From an uncultured Nitrospiraceae bacterium (GTDB lineage: Bacteria > Nitrospirota > Thermodesulfovibrionia > Thermodesulfovibrionales > Dissulfurispiraceae), in NCBI GenBank assembly GCA_963727805.1, contig CAVSHF010000003.1, forward strand, positions 928,001 to 992,000: DNA of 64,000 nucleotides, written 5' to 3'. A program made the translations under genes and the position numbers. The notes beneath the pieces were generated by a model. The model saw only the letters and a program-made list of their open reading frames with translations. It had not been told where the DNA came from and did no database searches. Of the stretch, positions 32,042-63,884 are shown piece by piece (position 1 is the first letter of the stretch; the number at the start of each line of letters is the position of its first letter).

Positions 32042-32162
32042 TGGAGAGAGGCAGTGGGAATCGGACCCACTCTCGGTTCATTAATATATGGCAAGCGCTC
32101 AATTGCCTTGAACCGTGATGCTGGTTTTGCACACCAGATGAGGCACCAGCCCCATGCCCCCC
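32042..32162 (-). tRNA. Non-canonical tRNA-Sec-shaped tRNA with Cys anticodon GCA (selC*-like), possibly degenerate
   Basis: Acceptor GGGGGGCA/TGCCTCTC (8 bp) + T73 + CCA; D arm TGGGGC-TGGT-GCCTCA; anticodon arm CTGGT-GTGCAAA-ACCAG; variable arm of about 50 nt; T arm GTGGG-TCCGATT-CCCAC. Confidence 0.8.
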
Positions 32163-55852: not shown

Positions 55853-56602
55853 CTATTTAGAGCCGGCTGAAGGCATCTTGGAAAGTAAATCGATGACTTT
55901 CATGGCAGCTTCGCCATGCTGATGAGACATCGCCATCATTGGGTTGTCCATCGTCATGCCCTTTTCATGCATGTCCATCATCTCTTTGCCGCCCATCATG
56001 TCGGATACCATGGGTTTGGCATCCTTCATCATCTCTTTTCCGTGCTCGACTGTCATCTTGTCTACAGCACCTGCCATGCCCATCTCCCCAAGCATTACCA
56101 TATTAGCTCCTTCGGCAGCCATTTGCAAGGCATGATTGACCATCATATGCATATGGTGCATTGACATCATGCCAGGAGCGGACATGTCCTCCATAGACAT
56201 CTTTTCGAGTATGTCAGCGACTTTGAGCATAGATTCGCCAAGTTGATGTGTGTAGTCCATCATCGGGTCCTTGCCATGTTTCTTCATCATAGCTGTCATC
56301 TCCGGGCCATTTAGGGCACGAACGATCAATTCCTTGCCTTCTTTCATCATGTGGTGTCCGTGATGGAGCATCTTTTCATCGACTCCCGGTGCCATTTTCA
56401 TCTGCGCAAGCATCGCCATATTCGAACCCTCGGCTATCATCGATATGCCGTGATTCATCAGCATATGGAAGTGATGCATGTGCATAGAGGCATCATGGCC
56501 CTTGTGCTTCATCTCTTCAGCATTTGCAGAACCAAACATAGCAAAAGACAAGATAACTGCTAATACAATTATCCTGTTAAGTCTTTTCATCATACCTTTC
56601 AT
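55853..56602 (-). CDS. Periplasmic Met/His-rich two-repeat protein, putative copper binding or storage
   Basis: Signal peptide; about 50 Met, many His and no Cys; duplicated MHHxHMxxNH...AEGxNMxML...HQxGE unit. Confidence 0.8.
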   Translation of the reverse strand: MKGMMKRLNRIIVLAVILSFAMFGSANAEEMKHKGHDASMHMHHFHMLMNHGISMIAEGSNMAMLAQMKMAPGVDEKMLHHGHHMMKEGKELIVRALNGPEMTAMMKKHGKDPMMDYTHQLGESMLKVADILEKMSMEDMSAPGMMSMHHMHMMVNHALQMAAEGANMVMLGEMGMAGAVDKMTVEHGKEMMKDAKPMVSDMMGGKEMMDMHEKGMTMDNPMMAMSHQHGEAAMKVIDLLSKMPSAGSK

Positions 56603-56794
56603 AAATAATCCTCCTTTGTTGTCGGTCTAAACCGACTTTCGGTTATCTTAAAGATAACGTGTAGCCATATAAAATATAGCTATGATCGATCCGTCAAACA
56701 ACTTCACCGTAAGTTTGTGCAAATCGCCTGTCACCATTACGTCCGCAGTGGTGGAAGAAATCACTGGATTATGTTCATCCAGTGACATGTCTGC

Positions 56795-58129
56795 CTATCC
56801 ACTACTGACCGGGAAGGCAAAGGTGACATTGTCCTCTGCATTGTCCTTTTTAATCTTCAGCCTCATCTCCCAGCGTCCTTCCATTATAAGCACAACATTT
56901 TCTACACTATATGTACCGCCTCCCTTCTCTTTGACTACGGGTTTATCAAAGACCCCATGCCCCATCTCCGGCATCCAGGGGACAACATTCATTTCCGCGC
57001 CAGTTACCTCTTTCCCATTTTTGTCCTGGAGCACGACGTCAAAAGTATTAACTCCCACCTGAAGAGCTTGATCTTTGATCACAATCTTCACAGAATACAG
57101 ACCATTGGCCGTCATCTTTAACAGACTCTGCTCATTGACCTGTTCCTTACGTTGACTCATGCCACGATCGGTACTCGTTTCAGGATTTGAAAGCGTTCTT
57201 TGTTCGCGTTCCAGCAGCAGCATATGGACAGCATGACGTGCGGGGACTTCTTGTGTGAAAAGAGAGACACAGAAAAGTATCGCCAGTATCAGGAAAGCTT
57301 CGACTCTGCTCCGCTTGAGAAACTTTGTAACGTATGCAGCTTCGTCCTTTCCCTTCTGAGGAGGGGCGATGTATCTTGAAGTGAGATATGCAAAGATAAG
57401 CAACTTGATCGAAAGTAACCGTCCGTAGGTATTCGTCAGAAGTGCCCCGAAGGATCCGACATCTACCCAGGCGTTGTAAAGCCCCGTAAAGACGAGCACA
57501 GCAAAAACAGGACCGAAAAGGACGTAGAACCTGTCAGCTATGCCAGATACGATATGCTGCTGTTCGACGTTGTCCGCTATTTTAGATGCAGAAAACATAA
57601 TCGATATCGTCAGTAGTGTTCCTCCCCAGGAGATAGATGCCAGAAGATGGAACCAGTCTGATAATTCCTGCAGGCTAAAGTCTCCGTTGTCTGCACCGTG
57701 GCTTGTCGCACTGCGTGAAAAGGCAATGGCAGCGCAGGCTAAAAGCAATACAATAGCTATAATACGTGAATTCAGATGCCGATTCCCCAGCCACCAAACA
57801 CACCAGGCTAAGACGATACCAACCGCCCTCACGAGCCACATGCTTCCATAATGCGAACTGAACAGAACAGTTGGCAATACAGGGACTATTTCCGTGATGC
57901 CCAGACCTGCCATCACCATAGCTCGCTGCACAAGGAGGCCTAAGCTGCTGATGCTCAGTCCGACAAGGCAAAATAAGAGCAGCCTGCGGCAACCGTCAGA
58001 ACATTGGTTGGTTGGTGAGTCGACGGATACCGGGCGCATAGTCCAGAAAAGGCAAAGGATAGTGCCAACGAACAAGGATAGCGCCGAAAGATCGATGAAC
58101 GGCATCAAGCTATGCAGAAATATATCCAT
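56795..58129 (-). CDS. copD: CopD-family inner-membrane copper protein fused to a C-terminal YtkA-like domain
   Basis: About eight TM segments; SHG, HLLASISWGG, TG.YN and T.YG.LL..K; C-terminal PWMPEMGHG domain. Start re-called to 58129. Confidence 0.85.
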   Translation of the reverse strand: MDIFLHSLMPFIDLSALSLFVGTILCLFWTMRPVSVDSPTNQCSDGCRRLLLFCLVGLSISSLGLLVQRAMVMAGLGITEIVPVLPTVLFSSHYGSMWLVRAVGIVLAWCVWWLGNRHLNSRIIAIVLLLACAAIAFSRSATSHGADNGDFSLQELSDWFHLLASISWGGTLLTISIMFSASKIADNVEQQHIVSGIADRFYVLFGPVFAVLVFTGLYNAWVDVGSFGALLTNTYGRLLSIKLLIFAYLTSRYIAPPQKGKDEAAYVTKFLKRSRVEAFLILAILFCVSLFTQEVPARHAVHMLLLEREQRTLSNPETSTDRGMSQRKEQVNEQSLLKMTANGLYSVKIVIKDQALQVGVNTFDVVLQDKNGKEVTGAEMNVVPWMPEMGHGVFDKPVVKEKGGGTYSVENVVLIMEGRWEMRLKIKKDNAEDNVTFAFPVSSG

Positions 58130-58139
58130 GTCATTGACC

Positions 58140-58514
58140 TCATTTGATCGTAAATCTATAATCCCCGGTAGTGCGGTGTCCGTCTCTTGCCACGACGTTC
58201 CAAATGACACGATAGGTTCCAGCCGGCAGCGGAGGCAAGCCGACTTCGAGCAGGACCGAATTGGAGGGGTTCACCCGGCTGTTGCCCTGGTCCACTTGTT
58301 TGCCACTCATGTCCTGGACTGTCATCTTGCTGAAGGCCGGCTCAATATCCCCATCGAACCATATATATGCGCCGACAGGCGGAGTCGAAATAGTCTCCCC
58401 GACCCTCGGAATTGAATGATCGGGGAAGGCATGCCCATGGGACATACTAGGTAATACAAGCAGTAACGCAAGATAAGAAAGCGCTACTGCCGTCCTGACA
58501 TTCATGATATGCAT
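58140..58514 (-). CDS. copC: CopC copper chaperone
   Basis: Signal peptide, mature HAF...S.P, G.Y.V.W and DGH..G...F; no Met-rich loop. Confidence 0.92.
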   Translation of the reverse strand: MHIMNVRTAVALSYLALLLVLPSMSHGHAFPDHSIPRVGETISTPPVGAYIWFDGDIEPAFSKMTVQDMSGKQVDQGNSRVNPSNSVLLEVGLPPLPAGTYRVIWNVVARDGHRTTGDYRFTIK

Positions 58515-58520
58515 AAGAGT

Positions 58521-59528
58521 TTAGTGAAAAATCGGCCCGCCTATGCTCTTCGGGAACAGGTCATCAACAAATAAATGTATCAGACCAAGAACGCCGACAG
58601 TCTTCCCCGACCTTGAGTTGACAGGCAGTTCTGCAGCAATTCCGAACTCCATGAACTTCCCCGCCCACACCACACCCGGGTTGATAGTTCCAGTCGTCAG
58701 TCCCTTACTGTCCTGGCTCACGTTGGTCTGCATGGGAAATTCCACGACAAGGATCATGCGTTTGAAGGGATCCGGCAGGCCGATGTCTTTTACATGCTGT
58801 TGCAGGTACATGAGACTGTACTGAATTGTGAACCCCCAGTTAAAAGTCTTAGCATTGTAACTTATAGTCGTGTCTCCAGTATCCGGATCCGTACTGACAT
58901 TCTTGCTTCGTGTGGGGAACCCCATACCAATAGCTCCTGTAACTGCAAACGGTCTGATAAAACTAACGGAGTCTGGCAGATCGCCAAGACCCTTTCCGAA
59001 AAAGAGCCCAGGTGTTACGGTCGAAAATGAGTCCGAAATCTGATGTGCCCCTGTGCCTCCAAGGTCGACGTCAGTACCGATTGACATAATCAGTTCATGG
59101 GGAGCATTTGTCAAAAACTGCCATTTCGCACCCACACCGAGGTTATCCCAGCCATGCGCCGAGGTGCCATCATCGAACTTCTGGTGTATGTATGCTTCAT
59201 GAAATTCAAACCCGAAGTTCGGGATCAGGCGTTTGGAAACGTCGATGTTTATGTCAGTTTCCTTCGATGCCGGGTCTCCAGATTGTCTATTGTGGTGTAT
59301 AAGGATCGAAAACTCATCTGAAATAAAGGGGTCGTCCACTGCGAATGTCGTGGGGAAAAACCTGTTGCCCGCGATACCGTGTGCCAAAGCCATGTCCGGC
59401 ACAAGAAGTACTAATGACAAGGCAACCCCAAGAGTGCTCAACAGAGATGCTGTCAGTATCGAACCTCCCGACAACGACCAACTTATCGTCCACTTTTTTT
59501 TCGCGTTTCTTTTAATAGATTTTATCAC
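58521..59528 (-). CDS. Putative outer-membrane beta-barrel associated with copCD
   Basis: Signal peptide ending ALA|HG, GNRFFP...DDP, then amphipathic strands. GTG start at 59528 after GGAGG (start uncertain). Confidence 0.7.
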   Translation of the reverse strand: MIKSIKRNAKKKWTISWSLSGGSILTASLLSTLGVALSLVLLVPDMALAHGIAGNRFFPTTFAVDDPFISDEFSILIHHNRQSGDPASKETDINIDVSKRLIPNFGFEFHEAYIHQKFDDGTSAHGWDNLGVGAKWQFLTNAPHELIMSIGTDVDLGGTGAHQISDSFSTVTPGLFFGKGLGDLPDSVSFIRPFAVTGAIGMGFPTRSKNVSTDPDTGDTTISYNAKTFNWGFTIQYSLMYLQQHVKDIGLPDPFKRMILVVEFPMQTNVSQDSKGLTTGTINPGVVWAGKFMEFGIAAELPVNSRSGKTVGVLGLIHLFVDDLFPKSIGGPIFH

Positions 59529-59686
59529 TTCTAAAACCTCCATATTTTTATGTTCAACATCCCTAAAGTAAGGCCGTATGGTGCCTGCTTCCTTCCACTG
59601 TTTGTCAAAAGCAAGAGAAATATCCAAGTGGTGACCTCTGCCTTGCACATACCAAATCTGGATATTTCAGACAGACAGTTTCGAAT

Positions 59687-60019
59687 CTAGCTTGCATACT
59701 CTGGGGGAGGATAATCTTGAAAGACTATCAATAAAGCGCTAGGTGTGAAACTCGATGCAGTATAACCCCCGACATAATGCATTGAAGCAGATAGGTATGC
59801 ACTTTCGTGGACAACGGGCGTGTCAATGCTCTTCTGAATCCCCTCTGTCGAAGCGTGGCAGACCTCTAGTGTAGCAATGCATGGCACGCTGGAGTTTGTA
59901 GACATGCATATATTTACTTTTGGCATTATTGATAAGACCAGACAGATTACACTTATTACCGGAATAAGTTTCGCGAAGTTTGCTATATCCAAAAAACCTT
60001 GCGATGATTTTATTTGCAT
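59687..60019 (-). CDS. Putative leader protein with LEVCH motif and C-terminal YPPPE (copy 1)
   Basis: Hydrophobic N-terminus, LEVCH and IVFQDYPPPEYAS*; paralog of 61958-62260. Confidence 0.7.
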   Translation of the reverse strand: MQIKSSQGFLDIANFAKLIPVISVICLVLSIMPKVNICMSTNSSVPCIATLEVCHASTEGIQKSIDTPVVHESAYLSASMHYVGGYTASSFTPSALLIVFQDYPPPEYAS

Positions 60020-60025
60020 GTTACC

Positions 60026-60053
60026 AGAATATCATGTCCTCAAAAAAAATCAA
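60026..60053 (-). promoter_or_regulatory. Sigma70-like promoter TTGATT-N16-TATTCT with extended TG
   Basis: Same architecture as 62293-62320; the ATG lies only 6 nt past the -10 box. Confidence 0.5.
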
Positions 60054-60290
60054 GGATGTCGGTGCATTTGTCACCGGGTTTGATGCTAAAACATGATAGA
60101 TTCTTTCCTTATTCCTCTCAGCATGCACTTTGCCGCAAGGTGTTATAGGCCATTTTTTTGTGGGGGGTCTTTCGACCCCTCCAAATCGGCTTCTATCAAT
60201 GCGTGGTGGAATTCTAAAAAAGCTCGATGAAAGAACAGATTGCCTTCTTGCGCCTGTCTCAGCACCGCCGAAGCCGTTGACAGCCCTGAG

Positions 60291-61790
60291 CTAAAACATT
60301 ACTTGAAAGCTGGCATTGAGAAGCCATTTAGTTTTCAACTGAATGCCGTTCAGGTCTTGATAGAGTGGAATACCTCCTTCAACTCCGATGCTGAAGGGAC
60401 CCTTTTGATAACTCACACCGATCAGTCCATCGAGTCGCTGGCCGCCATAGTTGTTGGGATCGGCATCTGGCATTGGCGCCCCTGTCATGGGATTCAGTAT
60501 CTCCTGGATCTGGGAATCCTGGCCCTTGATTCGCCCGGTATCGTTATAGGCAAGACGGAACGAGGGGGTAACGGGGTCTAAGGCACGCTGAATCCAACCG
60601 GTCACCTTGAAGTTGTCCCCGTAGCTCCAGCCCTCACCATTTTTTGCAGTATGCCAGGTGTACTGTGCTTGAGCGCCCCAGTTCCATTTAGCGTCGTCGC
60701 TGAGACCGTTGTAGGTAAGCGTGGGCTTGAGATCGTATGTGCCTGAACCAAGTTGCATATCATAAGGGGCGCGCAATTCCATGCCCATTACGTCTACTGT
60801 CTGCTTGATGCTGCCGGTCGGGAGGCTGAGACCGAGGCTGCCGACAAGATAGTTGTTGATCTTATACATACCTCTCAGCTCGGTGTCACCAAAACCGCTA
60901 GTGGACATAGGAGCGCTGGAGAAGGTGCCCATCATCGGGCCCATGTCCATTATCATTTTCATCTTGTTCGTCACATAACTCGTCATTGCCATCACGGTCA
61001 CACGGTCGGTGATCCCGTACATCGCCATCACCATTTGCATATCCATCGTCATGCTGGTTGGGATCATCATATAGTTATAAGGCCGGTTCCTCATAAAACC
61101 GACACTGCTATTCCCAGCGTTATTTGTCCCAGCGCGCAACCCCATCATGTCCATATGCATGAATGAGTAGTTAACCATCCACATGCCCGCTGGGTGGGTA
61201 TGGTATATGTGATCGCTGAAGGCTGGATTGAACAGCATTTGGGCGCCCGGGCCCATATCCATATGGCGCATATCATGAGCCATGTGCCCATGATGGTCGT
61301 GGTTCATCATCCCCGCCTTCGCAACATCGTCTTCAGCGGCCTTCAGCGCCTCATCAAAGGTGCTCACTTTGCCGCCGTATTCCTTCACGAAGGCCTGCGC
61401 TTCTTTCTCCTCTGCAAAAGCCCATTCCGCTAAATAAGTCATGACCCCCGGTTTACTGCCGCCAATGACCCAGGTTGCGGTCTTTACATCTATCAGCTTC
61501 GTTGTTGCATAATCGGCAACCATAATCGACTTGACCTGCTTGTTTTTGTTTTCGTTCATCTCCTCGGCTGCACAGTGGAGGCTGCAGAACCCCACCGTGG
61601 TCCCGTCGGCATAGACAATAAGCATCCGGCTCCTGACATAAACGTTCCGGTCCATCCCGCATACGTTGCAGGTCTTGGGATTCTCTATGGTGGCCGCCTC
61701 GTTGCCGGCAATTGATGTGCGCACGCAGAATAACTGAACAAGAATAAACATGACCGCAAAAGATGTTTTAAACTTTTTTAGTGGTTTCAT
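60291..61790 (-). CDS. NosL-like domain fused through a His/Met linker to an outer-membrane barrel (MetA-pathway/phenol-degradation-like transporter)
   Basis: C..CGM...FCS..C...V.DY...A.WV.G...M (NosL-like); HDHHGHMAHDMRHMDM linker; GFGD, LSLPTG, QLGSGT; terminal Phe. Confidence 0.8.
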   Translation of the reverse strand: MKPLKKFKTSFAVMFILVQLFCVRTSIAGNEAATIENPKTCNVCGMDRNVYVRSRMLIVYADGTTVGFCSLHCAAEEMNENKNKQVKSIMVADYATTKLIDVKTATWVIGGSKPGVMTYLAEWAFAEEKEAQAFVKEYGGKVSTFDEALKAAEDDVAKAGMMNHDHHGHMAHDMRHMDMGPGAQMLFNPAFSDHIYHTHPAGMWMVNYSFMHMDMMGLRAGTNNAGNSSVGFMRNRPYNYMMIPTSMTMDMQMVMAMYGITDRVTVMAMTSYVTNKMKMIMDMGPMMGTFSSAPMSTSGFGDTELRGMYKINNYLVGSLGLSLPTGSIKQTVDVMGMELRAPYDMQLGSGTYDLKPTLTYNGLSDDAKWNWGAQAQYTWHTAKNGEGWSYGDNFKVTGWIQRALDPVTPSFRLAYNDTGRIKGQDSQIQEILNPMTGAPMPDADPNNYGGQRLDGLIGVSYQKGPFSIGVEGGIPLYQDLNGIQLKTKWLLNASFQVMF

Positions 61791-61957: not shown

Positions 61958-62260
61958 TTAACTTGTTGATTCTGGGGGAGGGTATTCTTGAAAGACTATC
62001 AGTACAAGGCTAGGCGTTGAACTCAATGTAGTATGAGTTCCAGTAGAGTTCCATGGACCAAACAGCTCAGAATCGCCAATAACTGAGGAGGTGTCAATAA
62101 TTCTCTGAATCCCTGATGTCGGATGGCAGACTTCAAGCTTACCGATGTATCGTTCCGCTGGACTTATATGAATGTTGACGAGTCCAGTCGGCATTAGGGA
62201 AACTATGAGCACGATCAGGATTATTCCCGAAAGCAGTTTCACAGCATTTGCAATGTTCAA
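61958..62260 (-). CDS. Putative leader protein with LEVCH motif and C-terminal YPPPE (copy 2)
   Basis: TTG start; hydrophobic N-terminus, LEVCH and IVFQEYPPPESTS*. Confidence 0.7.
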   Translation of the reverse strand: MNIANAVKLLSGIILIVLIVSLMPTGLVNIHISPAERYIGKLEVCHPTSGIQRIIDTSSVIGDSELFGPWNSTGTHTTLSSTPSLVLIVFQEYPPPESTS

Positions 62261-62478: not shown

Positions 62479-62973
62479 TCAGTCCGACTTTTGGAATTCC
62501 AAGATGGGAATATGATATTTGCCATCTTGGAATTTCCCGGGAATTCTGATCGGGTAGCAGCCCCCAATTCCACTCTTTACTTCTGACACGCTATATGTCG
62601 TACCGCATTCCTTACAAGTAAAATGACCGCTACTAAAGGTGAAGCCAACCTTGGATTTACAGCTCACACATTTATCAAGAAAAGAAAGGACTTCGTTGTC
62701 GATTTTTATGACAAAGAAATTTATGTTCTCGTTCCCGGAATCATAAGTAAAGAATTGGGGAACATCGGGCTTCAGGCTTAGAACATCGATGTTCACCTCT
62801 TCGCCTGATACCGGCGCTTTCGAATAAATAGCATGCTTAGAGCAGGCAGCAAGAAGCATAAGGCATAGCAGTAAAAAATAGAGTCCCTTCTTAGCAAATG
62901 TCCTATTGGTTAATACTTGCTTTTTAAACGTGTGCATCTTAGAGAATCTTTTGAGCCTCATGTTAGTTTGCAT
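62479..62973 (-). CDS. DUF2318-like Cys-motif lipoprotein
   Basis: LAAC lipobox; FFVI...D.C..C...G......C..CG......GGC.P; start uncertain. Confidence 0.8.
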   Translation of the reverse strand: MQTNMRLKRFSKMHTFKKQVLTNRTFAKKGLYFLLLCLMLLAACSKHAIYSKAPVSGEEVNIDVLSLKPDVPQFFTYDSGNENINFFVIKIDNEVLSFLDKCVSCKSKVGFTFSSGHFTCKECGTTYSVSEVKSGIGGCYPIRIPGKFQDGKYHIPILEFQKSD

Positions 62974-63023: not shown

Positions 63024-63168
63024 CTAGTTCTTTTCATTATATCTTTGCTTCGTCTTAAGTAGAAGTTCCGCGGGTAGCCGGACCTCCTGATAGCAATGTA
63101 GGCAAGGGAGATCATTTCTCGGTAATATACCACTGTATAAAAAAATCATGAGTGTTATCGACTGACAT
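63024..63168 (-). pseudogene. 5' stub of a radical SAM gene with a frameshift in the CxxxCxxC motif
   Basis: GAGGA RBS, MSVDNTHDFFIQWYITEK[TGA], then in another frame DLPCLHCYQEVRLPAEL...*. Adding 2 nt at about 63113 restores FIQW.ITEKC.L.C.HCYQ. Confidence 0.75.
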
Positions 63169-63214
63169 GGTAATTCCTCATTTGAGAACATGGTGAGCTC
63201 TATTCGTTAATAAA

Positions 63215-63259
63215 GAAAGCAGATACGTGTGACTGAATCATTAGTACGTATCTGCTTTC
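63215..63259 (-). terminator. Intrinsic terminator between the peptide gene and the radical SAM stub
   Basis: 14-bp stem GAAAGCAGATACGT/ACGTATCTGCTTTC followed by TTTATT on the minus strand. Confidence 0.75.
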
Positions 63260-63270
63260 ATACTGCTTTG

Positions 63271-63287
63271 GCTGCCAACCTGGCAGC
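63271..63287 (-). promoter_or_regulatory. Candidate bacterial SECIS element
   Basis: 17-nt hairpin GCTGCCA-GGT-TGGCAGC with a GGU apical loop, starting 11 nt after TGA 63299-63301 and 20 nt after TGA 63308-63310. Confidence 0.7.
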
Positions 63288-63289
63288 GT

Positions 63290-63409
63290 TTAACTCTTTC
63301 AACTGCTTCACTTGCGGCATATCTTGCCCGGACTAGCAGTCGTTTTCTTGAGCCTGTCCCAGAGGGCTGCCTCTTGCGTGAGAACCTTAGTGCTCAATTC
63401 TTTCTTCAT
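63290..63409 (-). CDS. Putative selenocysteine-containing peptide MKKELSTKVLTQEAALWDRLKKTTASPGKICRKUSSUKS (RiPP-precursor-like)
   Basis: AGGAGGTG RBS; ATG 63409; in-frame TGA at codons 34 and 37 giving C-x-x-U-x-x-U; TAA at 63290-63292; SECIS-like hairpin downstream. Confidence 0.7.
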
Positions 63410-63884
63410 CCCGTCTTCACCTCCTCTCCGAATAATCGGATTTAGCATGCCAAATAACAGCCCAGTCAATCCTTGGGCAGTGAAATTATTAGAGCCGTAC
63501 AACTCGCTTCGGGCTGATAATCACTGCTTTAGGCACTTTCATCACCATTGCCGGATTAAAGTTATCCCTGTGCTTGTCATACAGCTCTTTATTTCTGCAA
63601 TGCATTCTGGGGGACCATAGCTCTTTTTACATTTGGGTTCTTCCACGGATGCTTCAGGCTTCCCTCTCGCTGCTAAGGGCTTGCTCACCACATCCGACAC
63701 TCAGTCCCTTTCTCGTCATTGTTCCTATGGCTAACCCAAGAATGACATTGCAAGTCCTTCTTGATTGAAGCATAGCCCTAACACAAGAGAAATTAAATCA
63801 GACAAAAGCTAATTTTGTAGTCAGTCTTGTCCTACAAAGGAAATCGGGCAACAAATACAAAACTGTCTGCCTTCTTCAATGCAA

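Follow-up and report, generated by a model that had tools for sequence, protein, structure and literature searches.

The closest described counterparts of the locus analysed here are the SbtA/SbtM systems, in which a short gene for a selenocysteine (Sec)-containing precursor, SbtA (TIGR04081, 'selenobacteriocin'), precedes a radical SAM/SPASM enzyme with a three-cluster layout, SbtM (TIGR04082). The target in SbtA is a GGUG motif, and a thio(seleno)oxazole arises when SbtM oxidises Gly-Cys/Sec (PMC9204691). The maturases of sactipeptides and ranthipeptides (PapB, Tte1186, CteB and SkfB) share a SPASM domain with seven Cys and an open Fe site for the Cys or Sec of the substrate, and, when given Sec-substituted substrates, PapB and Tte1186 produce selenoethers (PMC10177961). 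With respect to decoding, PMC13582414 proposes for the UxxU selenoproteins (Group 4 [NiFeSe] hydrogenases) that one SECIS element with a loop G decodes both UGAs of UXXU, and SaoC-type proteins have a 7-bp SECIS with a GGU loop near a C-terminal Sec (bioRxiv 2022.07.06.499078). A 2026 inventory (PMC13188914) comprises 119 prokaryotic selenoprotein families, of which, by our reading of its Table 1, one is a Sec-containing RiPP precursor (TIGR04081).

We analysed a window of 64,000 nt (positions 928,001 to 992,000 of contig CAVSHF010000003.1) from an uncultured member of the Nitrospirota (genome G000, GCA_963727805.1). Judged from its sequences, the system found here, a putative two-Sec peptide and a radical SAM/SPASM enzyme dedicated to it, is real, conserved and uncatalogued, and is akin to SbtA/SbtM in design without being a member. 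The resemblance lies in the layout of a short precursor gene before a three-cluster enzyme gene, in part, at U2 though not at U1, in the placement of Sec after Gly or Ser (SbtA sequences of the same phylum show SSU, SGU and NGU) and in a hairpin that lies at the stop codon or beyond it. In contrast to the hydrophobic leader and spaced GGU/SSU motifs of SbtA, the peptide family of the window has a basic leader (K-E-A-A-[FL]-W) followed by the core C-x-x-U-x-x-U, and none of its 24 members matched TIGR04081. The only intact enzyme of the source genome, encoded on contig C5, has 348 aa and is without the first ~200 profile positions of SbtM, covering 199-515 of TIGR04082; its score of 133.8 bits against a cut-off of 350 indicates that it is not SbtM. 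It is 26-28% identical to SbtM and 29% to an AhbD-like paralog, and the position of SbtM in our trees, which came from quick searches, is unreliable owing to long branches. SbtM genes occur in 50 of 401 Nitrospirota genomes with a separate distribution, and none was found in G000. As observations on SbtA itself, SbtA/SbtM loci were collected as L146-L149, the SbtA of L147 having three UGAs, including UxxU, before a single 3' hairpin; an SbtA-like site at G000:C3:1545162, picked up in a hairpin survey, received no support from TIGR04081.

The top sequence and fold match of the C5 enzyme was SkfB. However, the enzyme lies far under the cut-offs of this group (PapB, 67.5 versus 340; StsB, 100.1 versus 625), the present system has no PqqD/RRE and no CX3D acceptor motif, and the natural substrates of sactipeptide and ranthipeptide systems use Cys. 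The UxxU and SaoC-type selenoproteins differ in that they are not maturase substrates: they are folded proteins or enzymes for which Cys homologues exist. The nearest enzyme relatives in the phylum sample (36-42% identity) form a radical SAM clade encoded behind TIGR04222 membrane proteins (loci L092, L093, L094 and L095 in G027, G039, G166 and G239). Among the loci listed, four of five have the enzyme gene directly after a TIGR04222 protein with a G-C-S-G-C repeat tail, the TIGR04222 match having been tested on one. This is a separate, well-supported clade whose expected substrate is a Cys-rich protein tail and not a Sec peptide. It has been proposed that Cys-modifying MNIO enzymes, among them producers of copper-binding thiooxazoles, act on TIGR04222 tails (PMC12452194), and the TIGR04222-linked clade is possibly an anaerobic counterpart of those enzymes. 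Our literature search returned no paper describing the peptide family, which supplementary tables may still list; Table 1 of PMC13188914, as accessible, contains no family with this motif, and the accessible parts of PMC13692751 and bioRxiv 2022.07.06.499078 treat other systems.

The peptide gene lies on the minus strand of the window at 63290..63409. It is preceded by a Shine-Dalgarno sequence, AGGAGGTG (63418..63425), read directly from the sequence and located 8 nt 5' of the ATG at 63409, and GGAGGTG-like sites also lie 5' of most homologues displayed. The reading frame would encode 39 aa if TGA34 and TGA37 are Sec, its 3' part running TGC CGC AAG TGA AGC AGT TGA AAG AGT TAA and its product ending C-R-K-U-S-S-U-K-S before the stop. 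The codon of Cys31 is at 63319-17, the two TGAs with the two codons between them span 63299..63310 (TGA34, 63310-08; TGA37, 63301-299), and the terminal TAA is at 63292-90. The ribosome binding site, the ORF ending ICRK* and the continuation of its frame through two TGAs, on which the original prediction was built, are thus all present. The CxxCxxC register assigned to the UGAs fits their spacing to Cys31, and it is from this spacing, rather than from Cys homologues, that the register derives. Across the family, the leader has an invariant Glu13 and a near-invariant Trp17, and the core is C-x-K-U-x-[SG]-U-K-S. The window peptide is 81% identical to its C5 paralog and carries a 2-codon insertion that keeps the frame. 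NCBIfam and Pfam searches with the peptide gave no match, and a scan of the sequence 5' of this gene detected no sigma-70 promoter consensus.

Just 3' of the stop codon, and 11 nt after the second TGA, is a SECIS-like hairpin (63271..63287, minus strand) with a perfect 7-bp stem and a GGU loop, as had been described from the window sequence. The functional part of the Escherichia coli fdhF SECIS is likewise a 17-nt stem-loop located 11 nt past the UGA, with apical G/U. The loop of the window hairpin starts 17-18 nt past UGA2 and 26-27 nt past UGA1. Its fold is weak by itself (z of -2.64 on 32 nt, equalled by 4 of 200 shuffles). TGY-N6-TGA-N6-TGA patterns occur 159 times genome-wide in any frame, and in only two of these, the window locus and the C5 paralog, does a perfect G-loop hairpin follow at the matching spacing. 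Among homologues the hairpin covaries: 98.0% of cells in the alignment are paired, with 39 double-sided changes and a compensatory change in five of six pairs, compared to 17-58% in slid controls and 0 of 500 shuffles as high; the alignment was not fitted to the structure, and 4-nt loops introduce gaps into part of one column. A G was found in the first two loop bases at 62 of 63 loci, and the loop begins 15-18 nt after UGA2 at 61 of 63. A loop G is a feature of all Sec-type SECIS elements examined in PMC13582414. Between the peptide and enzyme genes of the window, a hairpin with a U-rich tail (63209..63259, minus strand) is a putative terminator. Its fold, at 63259-63215, has a z of -5.93, with none of 200 shuffles as good. 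A terminator scanner run on the window did not flag this hairpin, probably due to its bulged loop. A strong downstream hairpin was counted in all 63 loci, and this count was set aside as it had no control.

To follow the codons across homologues, a profile built from 24 peptides was used on a sample of 401 Nitrospirota genomes. This gave 74 full-length matches in 73 genomes, every one with two TGAs; four of six weak matches (G412, G028, G066 and G394) were chance or antisense on inspection. Codons were counted over 63 distinct loci, being 64 minus the decayed third copy of G000 (L073). The UGA1 site is TGA in all 63 loci, and conservation continues codon by codon beyond it. The UGA2 site is TGA in 62 and TAA in one (L010/L027), which has an intact enzyme alongside. 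In contrast, the terminal codon is free to vary (TGA 28, TAA 27, TAG 4 and sense 4). Variation past the first UGA is codon-like and without indels, and no stop occurs at any of the four sense codons flanking the two UGAs. Ser codons after UGA1 are drawn from both the AGY and the TCN family (one TCC and one TCG), a pattern suggesting selection at the protein level. The residue before U1 is always Lys, and that before U2 is Gly in 35, Ser in 27 and Ala in one of the 63. The TGA/Cys interchange that had been predicted was absent from the phylum sample, from the representative sequences and from the metagenome scan at position 34, and the usual test for a selenoprotein is negative here. Specifically, a search of 1.84 billion representatives found no Cys orthologue: 108 of 110 short matches end C-x-[KS], one is a gene call with TGA as Trp and one is divergent, while seven long matches were unrelated repeat proteins. 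In metagenomes, the pattern with Cys at position 34 matched only twice, by chance and out of frame inside other genes, and the TGA pattern had no match in viral contigs. As foreseen, database gene calls for the peptide stop at the first TGA. Overall, we hold it highly probable that both UGAs are read through, with Sec very probably the usual residue inserted.

The source genome (100% complete) possesses selA, selB, two selD genes and tRNA-Sec(UCA), the machinery that a selenoprotein reading presupposes, with one selB over the cut-off. Both selD genes carry an in-frame TGA (G000:C3:482960-483883 and C5:157506-158420). Among peptide genomes, 67 of 73 have selA, compared to 192 of 401 overall. 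Four of the six without selA show tRNA-Sec, selB or selD; in the other two, G181 (86% complete, searched for four genes) and G279 (63%, searched for selA and selD), no Sec component was found. The window also contains a gene with the shape of tRNA-Sec and a GCA anticodon, U73-CCA and a very long extra arm (32046-32162, minus strand; RF01852, 44.7 bits). It sits directly upstream of a [NiFe] hydrogenase operon, and its leader resembles that of a second such gene (L001 9193-9318, minus strand, = G000:C3:994192-994317), which lies ~2.9 kb upstream of the peptide, precedes a sulfur-transport gene of the YeeE/YedE type (PF04143) and is conserved in relatives (12 aligned). ARAGORN missed both. On sequence and shape, the two genes fit the selC* type of tRNA-Cys known from Nitrospirae (PMC5389517, PMC7609411), which is enriched in UXXU genomes and for which Cys insertion at a SECIS-marked UGA has been raised as possible (PMC13582414). 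The selC* pattern, which can miss diverged copies, matches only 15 of the 73 peptide genomes, indicating that the family is independent of selC* tRNAs; these tRNAs also occur in relatives without the peptide. A sulfur back-up version of the peptide is possible in the source organism.

The C5 enzyme scored over the cut-offs of PF04055 and PF13186, corresponding to a radical SAM domain with CxxxCxxC and a SPASM domain, and fell under every NCBIfam cut-off displayed. Seven SPASM Cys are invariant in 116 enzyme sequences, and relatives are labelled Dissulfurispiraceae, Thermodesulfovibrionales and Nitrospirota. Its predicted structure (pLDDT 90) resembles SkfB, SuiB, PqqE, anSME and ChlB and begins directly with the barrel, and no PqqD match was found when an RRE was sought in the enzyme; to our knowledge, an RRE is not universal among maturases. 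With presence set at E<1e-120, the enzyme was counted in 74 of 401 genomes. Both partners occur in 72 of the 75 genomes that have either, with the peptide alone in one and the enzyme alone in two (one with an internal stop). Within the 192 selA genomes, 66 have both, one the peptide only, two the enzyme only and 123 neither. The genomes are kin, so these counts are not independent, and the distribution is patchy within families. The two genes are linked in 65 genomes, the enzyme following the peptide at a median gap of 148 nt, and unlinked in seven; five of five further genomes with a lone enzyme hold the peptide elsewhere. The hairpin and the radical SAM neighbour are both conserved, as the original prediction expected. 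The enzyme is thus inherited with the peptide and dedicated to it. Of 71 loci, 59 have the enzyme as a neighbour and 13 a YceI gene; nothing else, including any protease or exporter, is found repeatedly. A conserved basic ORF of 47-50 aa with four Cys (C-x-N-x-x-C...C-x-G-F-x-G-C) lies divergent from unlinked enzyme copies (L032 1546-1689, L037 4756-4902, L046 4563-4715 and L048 3974-4120 (minus strand)); the two tested against Pfam gave no match. We set it aside as an alternative substrate, since the five such genomes tested all hold the Sec peptide elsewhere.

When the 31-residue leader, which reaches up to the first TGA, was modelled together with the C5 enzyme, the complex scored 0.80, compared to 0.02 for the best of three controls. 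Of 157 solved complexes, 116 attain the mark used for this score, as do 2 of 215 mismatches; with our own alignments, these counts are only roughly valid here. At least 89% of contacts are shared between runs, and the pLDDT of the partners is at least 78. The closest contacts in the model join Glu13 and Trp17 of the peptide to Arg287, Trp290 and Trp55 of the enzyme, which are invariant, and leader residues 16-31 run toward Cys253 and Cys271. The model supports binding of the leader to the enzyme. Likeness to solved leader-maturase complexes, SuiB and ChlB being top fold matches, may contribute to the score.

G000 holds three copies of the system. At the window locus the peptide is intact and the enzyme dead; at G000:C5:609659-608385 (L006, L008) both are intact, with an enzyme of 348-350 aa and a transposase-like ORF directly upstream; and at G000:C3:1337078-1337475 (L073 5079-5476) a decayed peptide (1337078-1337192) and a C-terminal enzyme remnant are followed by a YceI-like gene. 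The enzyme had been thought to be broken in this genome; it is broken at the window locus, and the C5 pair is intact. The radical SAM stub reported after the terminator is real and proved more damaged than described. It occupies 63050..63168 (minus strand) with ~40 codons and matches intact orthologs to about 63050. From its ATG at 63168, a 2-nt deletion brings TGA into codon 19, the position expected for the initial Cys of CxxxCxxC, Tyr replaces the family-invariant His14, and ~310 C-terminal codons are gone, with the region of an FtrD-like gene in their place. An ORF called at 63191-63024 was rejected as a frameshift chimera. Contigs from sequencing runs cover the locus in pieces, and one of them ends its match at 63062, near the breakpoint. 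The FtrD-like gene (62479..62973, minus strand; PF10080, 49.5 bits versus 26.3) follows the stub and probably arrived by rearrangement, because a 97% identical segment of its region is present elsewhere on C5; it lies outside the peptide/enzyme system. The window copy is a duplicate whose enzyme gene has decayed. Reciprocal losses are seen elsewhere: G010 has an intact orphan peptide plus a decayed peptide alongside an intact enzyme, and in G003 the TAA copy adjoins the enzyme and the intact copy is found with no enzyme remnant nearby. These losses argue for action in trans and fit the window copy, and we somewhat favour maturation of the window peptide in trans by the C5 enzyme. Since the window locus is an orphan duplicate, experiments are better directed at the C5 pair.

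Collectively, these results suggest a two-gene RiPP-type system of Sec-using Nitrospirota, made up of a two-Sec peptide and a radical SAM/SPASM enzyme, of which the window holds a duplicate (probability about 0.78). SelB bound to the single hairpin 3' of the stop would deliver Sec at both UGAs, and the terminator would hold the peptide mRNA in excess over the enzyme mRNA. A helical leader would then dock on the enzyme through Glu13 and Trp17, so that the C-x-K-U-x-[SG]-U core is threaded past the iron site left open in auxiliary cluster I, where the enzyme would oxidise Sec. The product might, at a guess, be a cytoplasmic selenol-bearing peptide that binds metal or acts in redox reactions. By analogy with SbtM, a selenoxazole at [SG]-U, perhaps at K-U too, is a tentative proposal with somewhat less than an even chance; it is an analogy because the enzyme is no closer to SbtM than to the AhbD-like paralog and the tree does not settle the matter, and selenoethers too are products of seven-Cys SPASM enzymes (PMC10177961). 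Some other chemistry is possible though doubtful, and selenoether cross-links are rather improbable. We offer a more far-reaching version equally tentatively, short of even odds: a Sec-obligate RiPP family, with no Cys version, in which one hairpin past the stop programs two Sec and an RRE-less enzyme builds a new selenium scaffold (a bis-selenoxazole or Se-C cross-links in C-x-x-U-x-x-U). The scaffold would chelate metal or act as a redox cofactor in the cytoplasm of anaerobic Nitrospirota, and the family would form, with the TIGR04222-tail sister clade, the oxygen-free counterpart of MNIO Cys-heterocycle chemistry. The peptide would be a second, unrelated Sec-containing RiPP precursor beside TIGR04081. 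It is present in about a third of the selA-positive Nitrospirota sampled (67 of 192) and goes unseen by gene callers and by searches for selenoproteins that depend on Cys homologues. The system bears on whether one bacterial SECIS decodes two UGAs and on how radical SAM/SPASM enzymes act upon natural Sec substrates.

The family may be real and the window copy nevertheless a dying duplicate, silent or unmodified, with function left to the C5 copy. The 40-codon wreck beside it, the third copy decayed in both peptide and enzyme and the missing sigma-70 consensus favour this, as do the 6-12 synonymous and 6-8 non-synonymous differences of 38 codons that separate it from four close homologues, though these are not a strong signal. 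We consider it unlikely, as the ribosome binding site, the frame, both TGAs, the hairpin and the terminator are intact beside a stub with three lesions, the insertion preserves the frame, and orphan peptides are kept in at least 12 other genomes with the enzyme elsewhere. That one or both UGAs are instead read as Cys by a tRNA-Cys of the selC* type (tRNA-ReC), so that a sulfur version would be made, at any rate under scarce selenium, is suggested by the two GCA-anticodon genes of the source genome and by the reports of selC* in Nitrospirae and of possible Cys at a SECIS-marked UGA. In view of the restriction of the selC* pattern to a minority of peptide genomes, its occurrence in relatives without the peptide, and the canonical tRNA-Sec(UCA) and single selB of G000, we regard a Cys reading as improbable.

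A yet smaller chance attaches to the ORF being a selenium-sensing attenuator leader, in which a ribosome at the UGAs controls the terminator and hence enzyme expression and the peptide is no substrate. Such a device would have just this layout of uORF, UGAs, hairpin, terminator and gene. However, peptide and enzyme co-occur even when unlinked, the invariant leader residues contact invariant enzyme residues in the predicted complex, and in L019, L033 and L062 the enzyme motif begins 53-68 nt after UGA2, leaving no space for a terminator. The least probable reading, to which we give hardly any weight, takes TGA34 as an ordinary stop, with a 33-residue product ending C-x-K and the downstream conservation belonging to a 9-nt DNA or RNA repeat. 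Database gene calls all terminate at TGA34, the segment can be read as a TGAAAGAGY repeat, and a Cys orthologue was not found. A true stop should nevertheless swap between TAA, TAG and TGA as codon 40 does, whereas codon 34 does not; the codon-like variation without indels beyond it and a hairpin with SECIS spacing and a loop G are likewise at odds with an ordinary stop.

Several minor features surround the window copy. The non-coding sequence 5' of the peptide (63584-63849) is repeated at G000:C3:2325302 (80%) and C3:108874, and within it 63636-63708 weakly matches 6S RNA (29.8 bits versus 46.4, E of 0.035). Just past the window end, L001 7100-7921 (minus strand) has split reading frames, which we take to resemble a broken C-GCAxxG-C-C family protein; a Pfam search with the downstream piece gave no match. 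On the other side of the peptide, a copper-handling-like cluster (window 55853-61790, minus strand) encodes CopC, a CopD-YtkA fusion, a NosL-domain transporter-like protein and His/Met-rich proteins. Its CopC/CopD copper-resistance-like genes are not conserved as neighbours and carry no weight. Two small ORFs in this part of the window, at 59687-60019 and 61958-62260, are seemingly related to each other.
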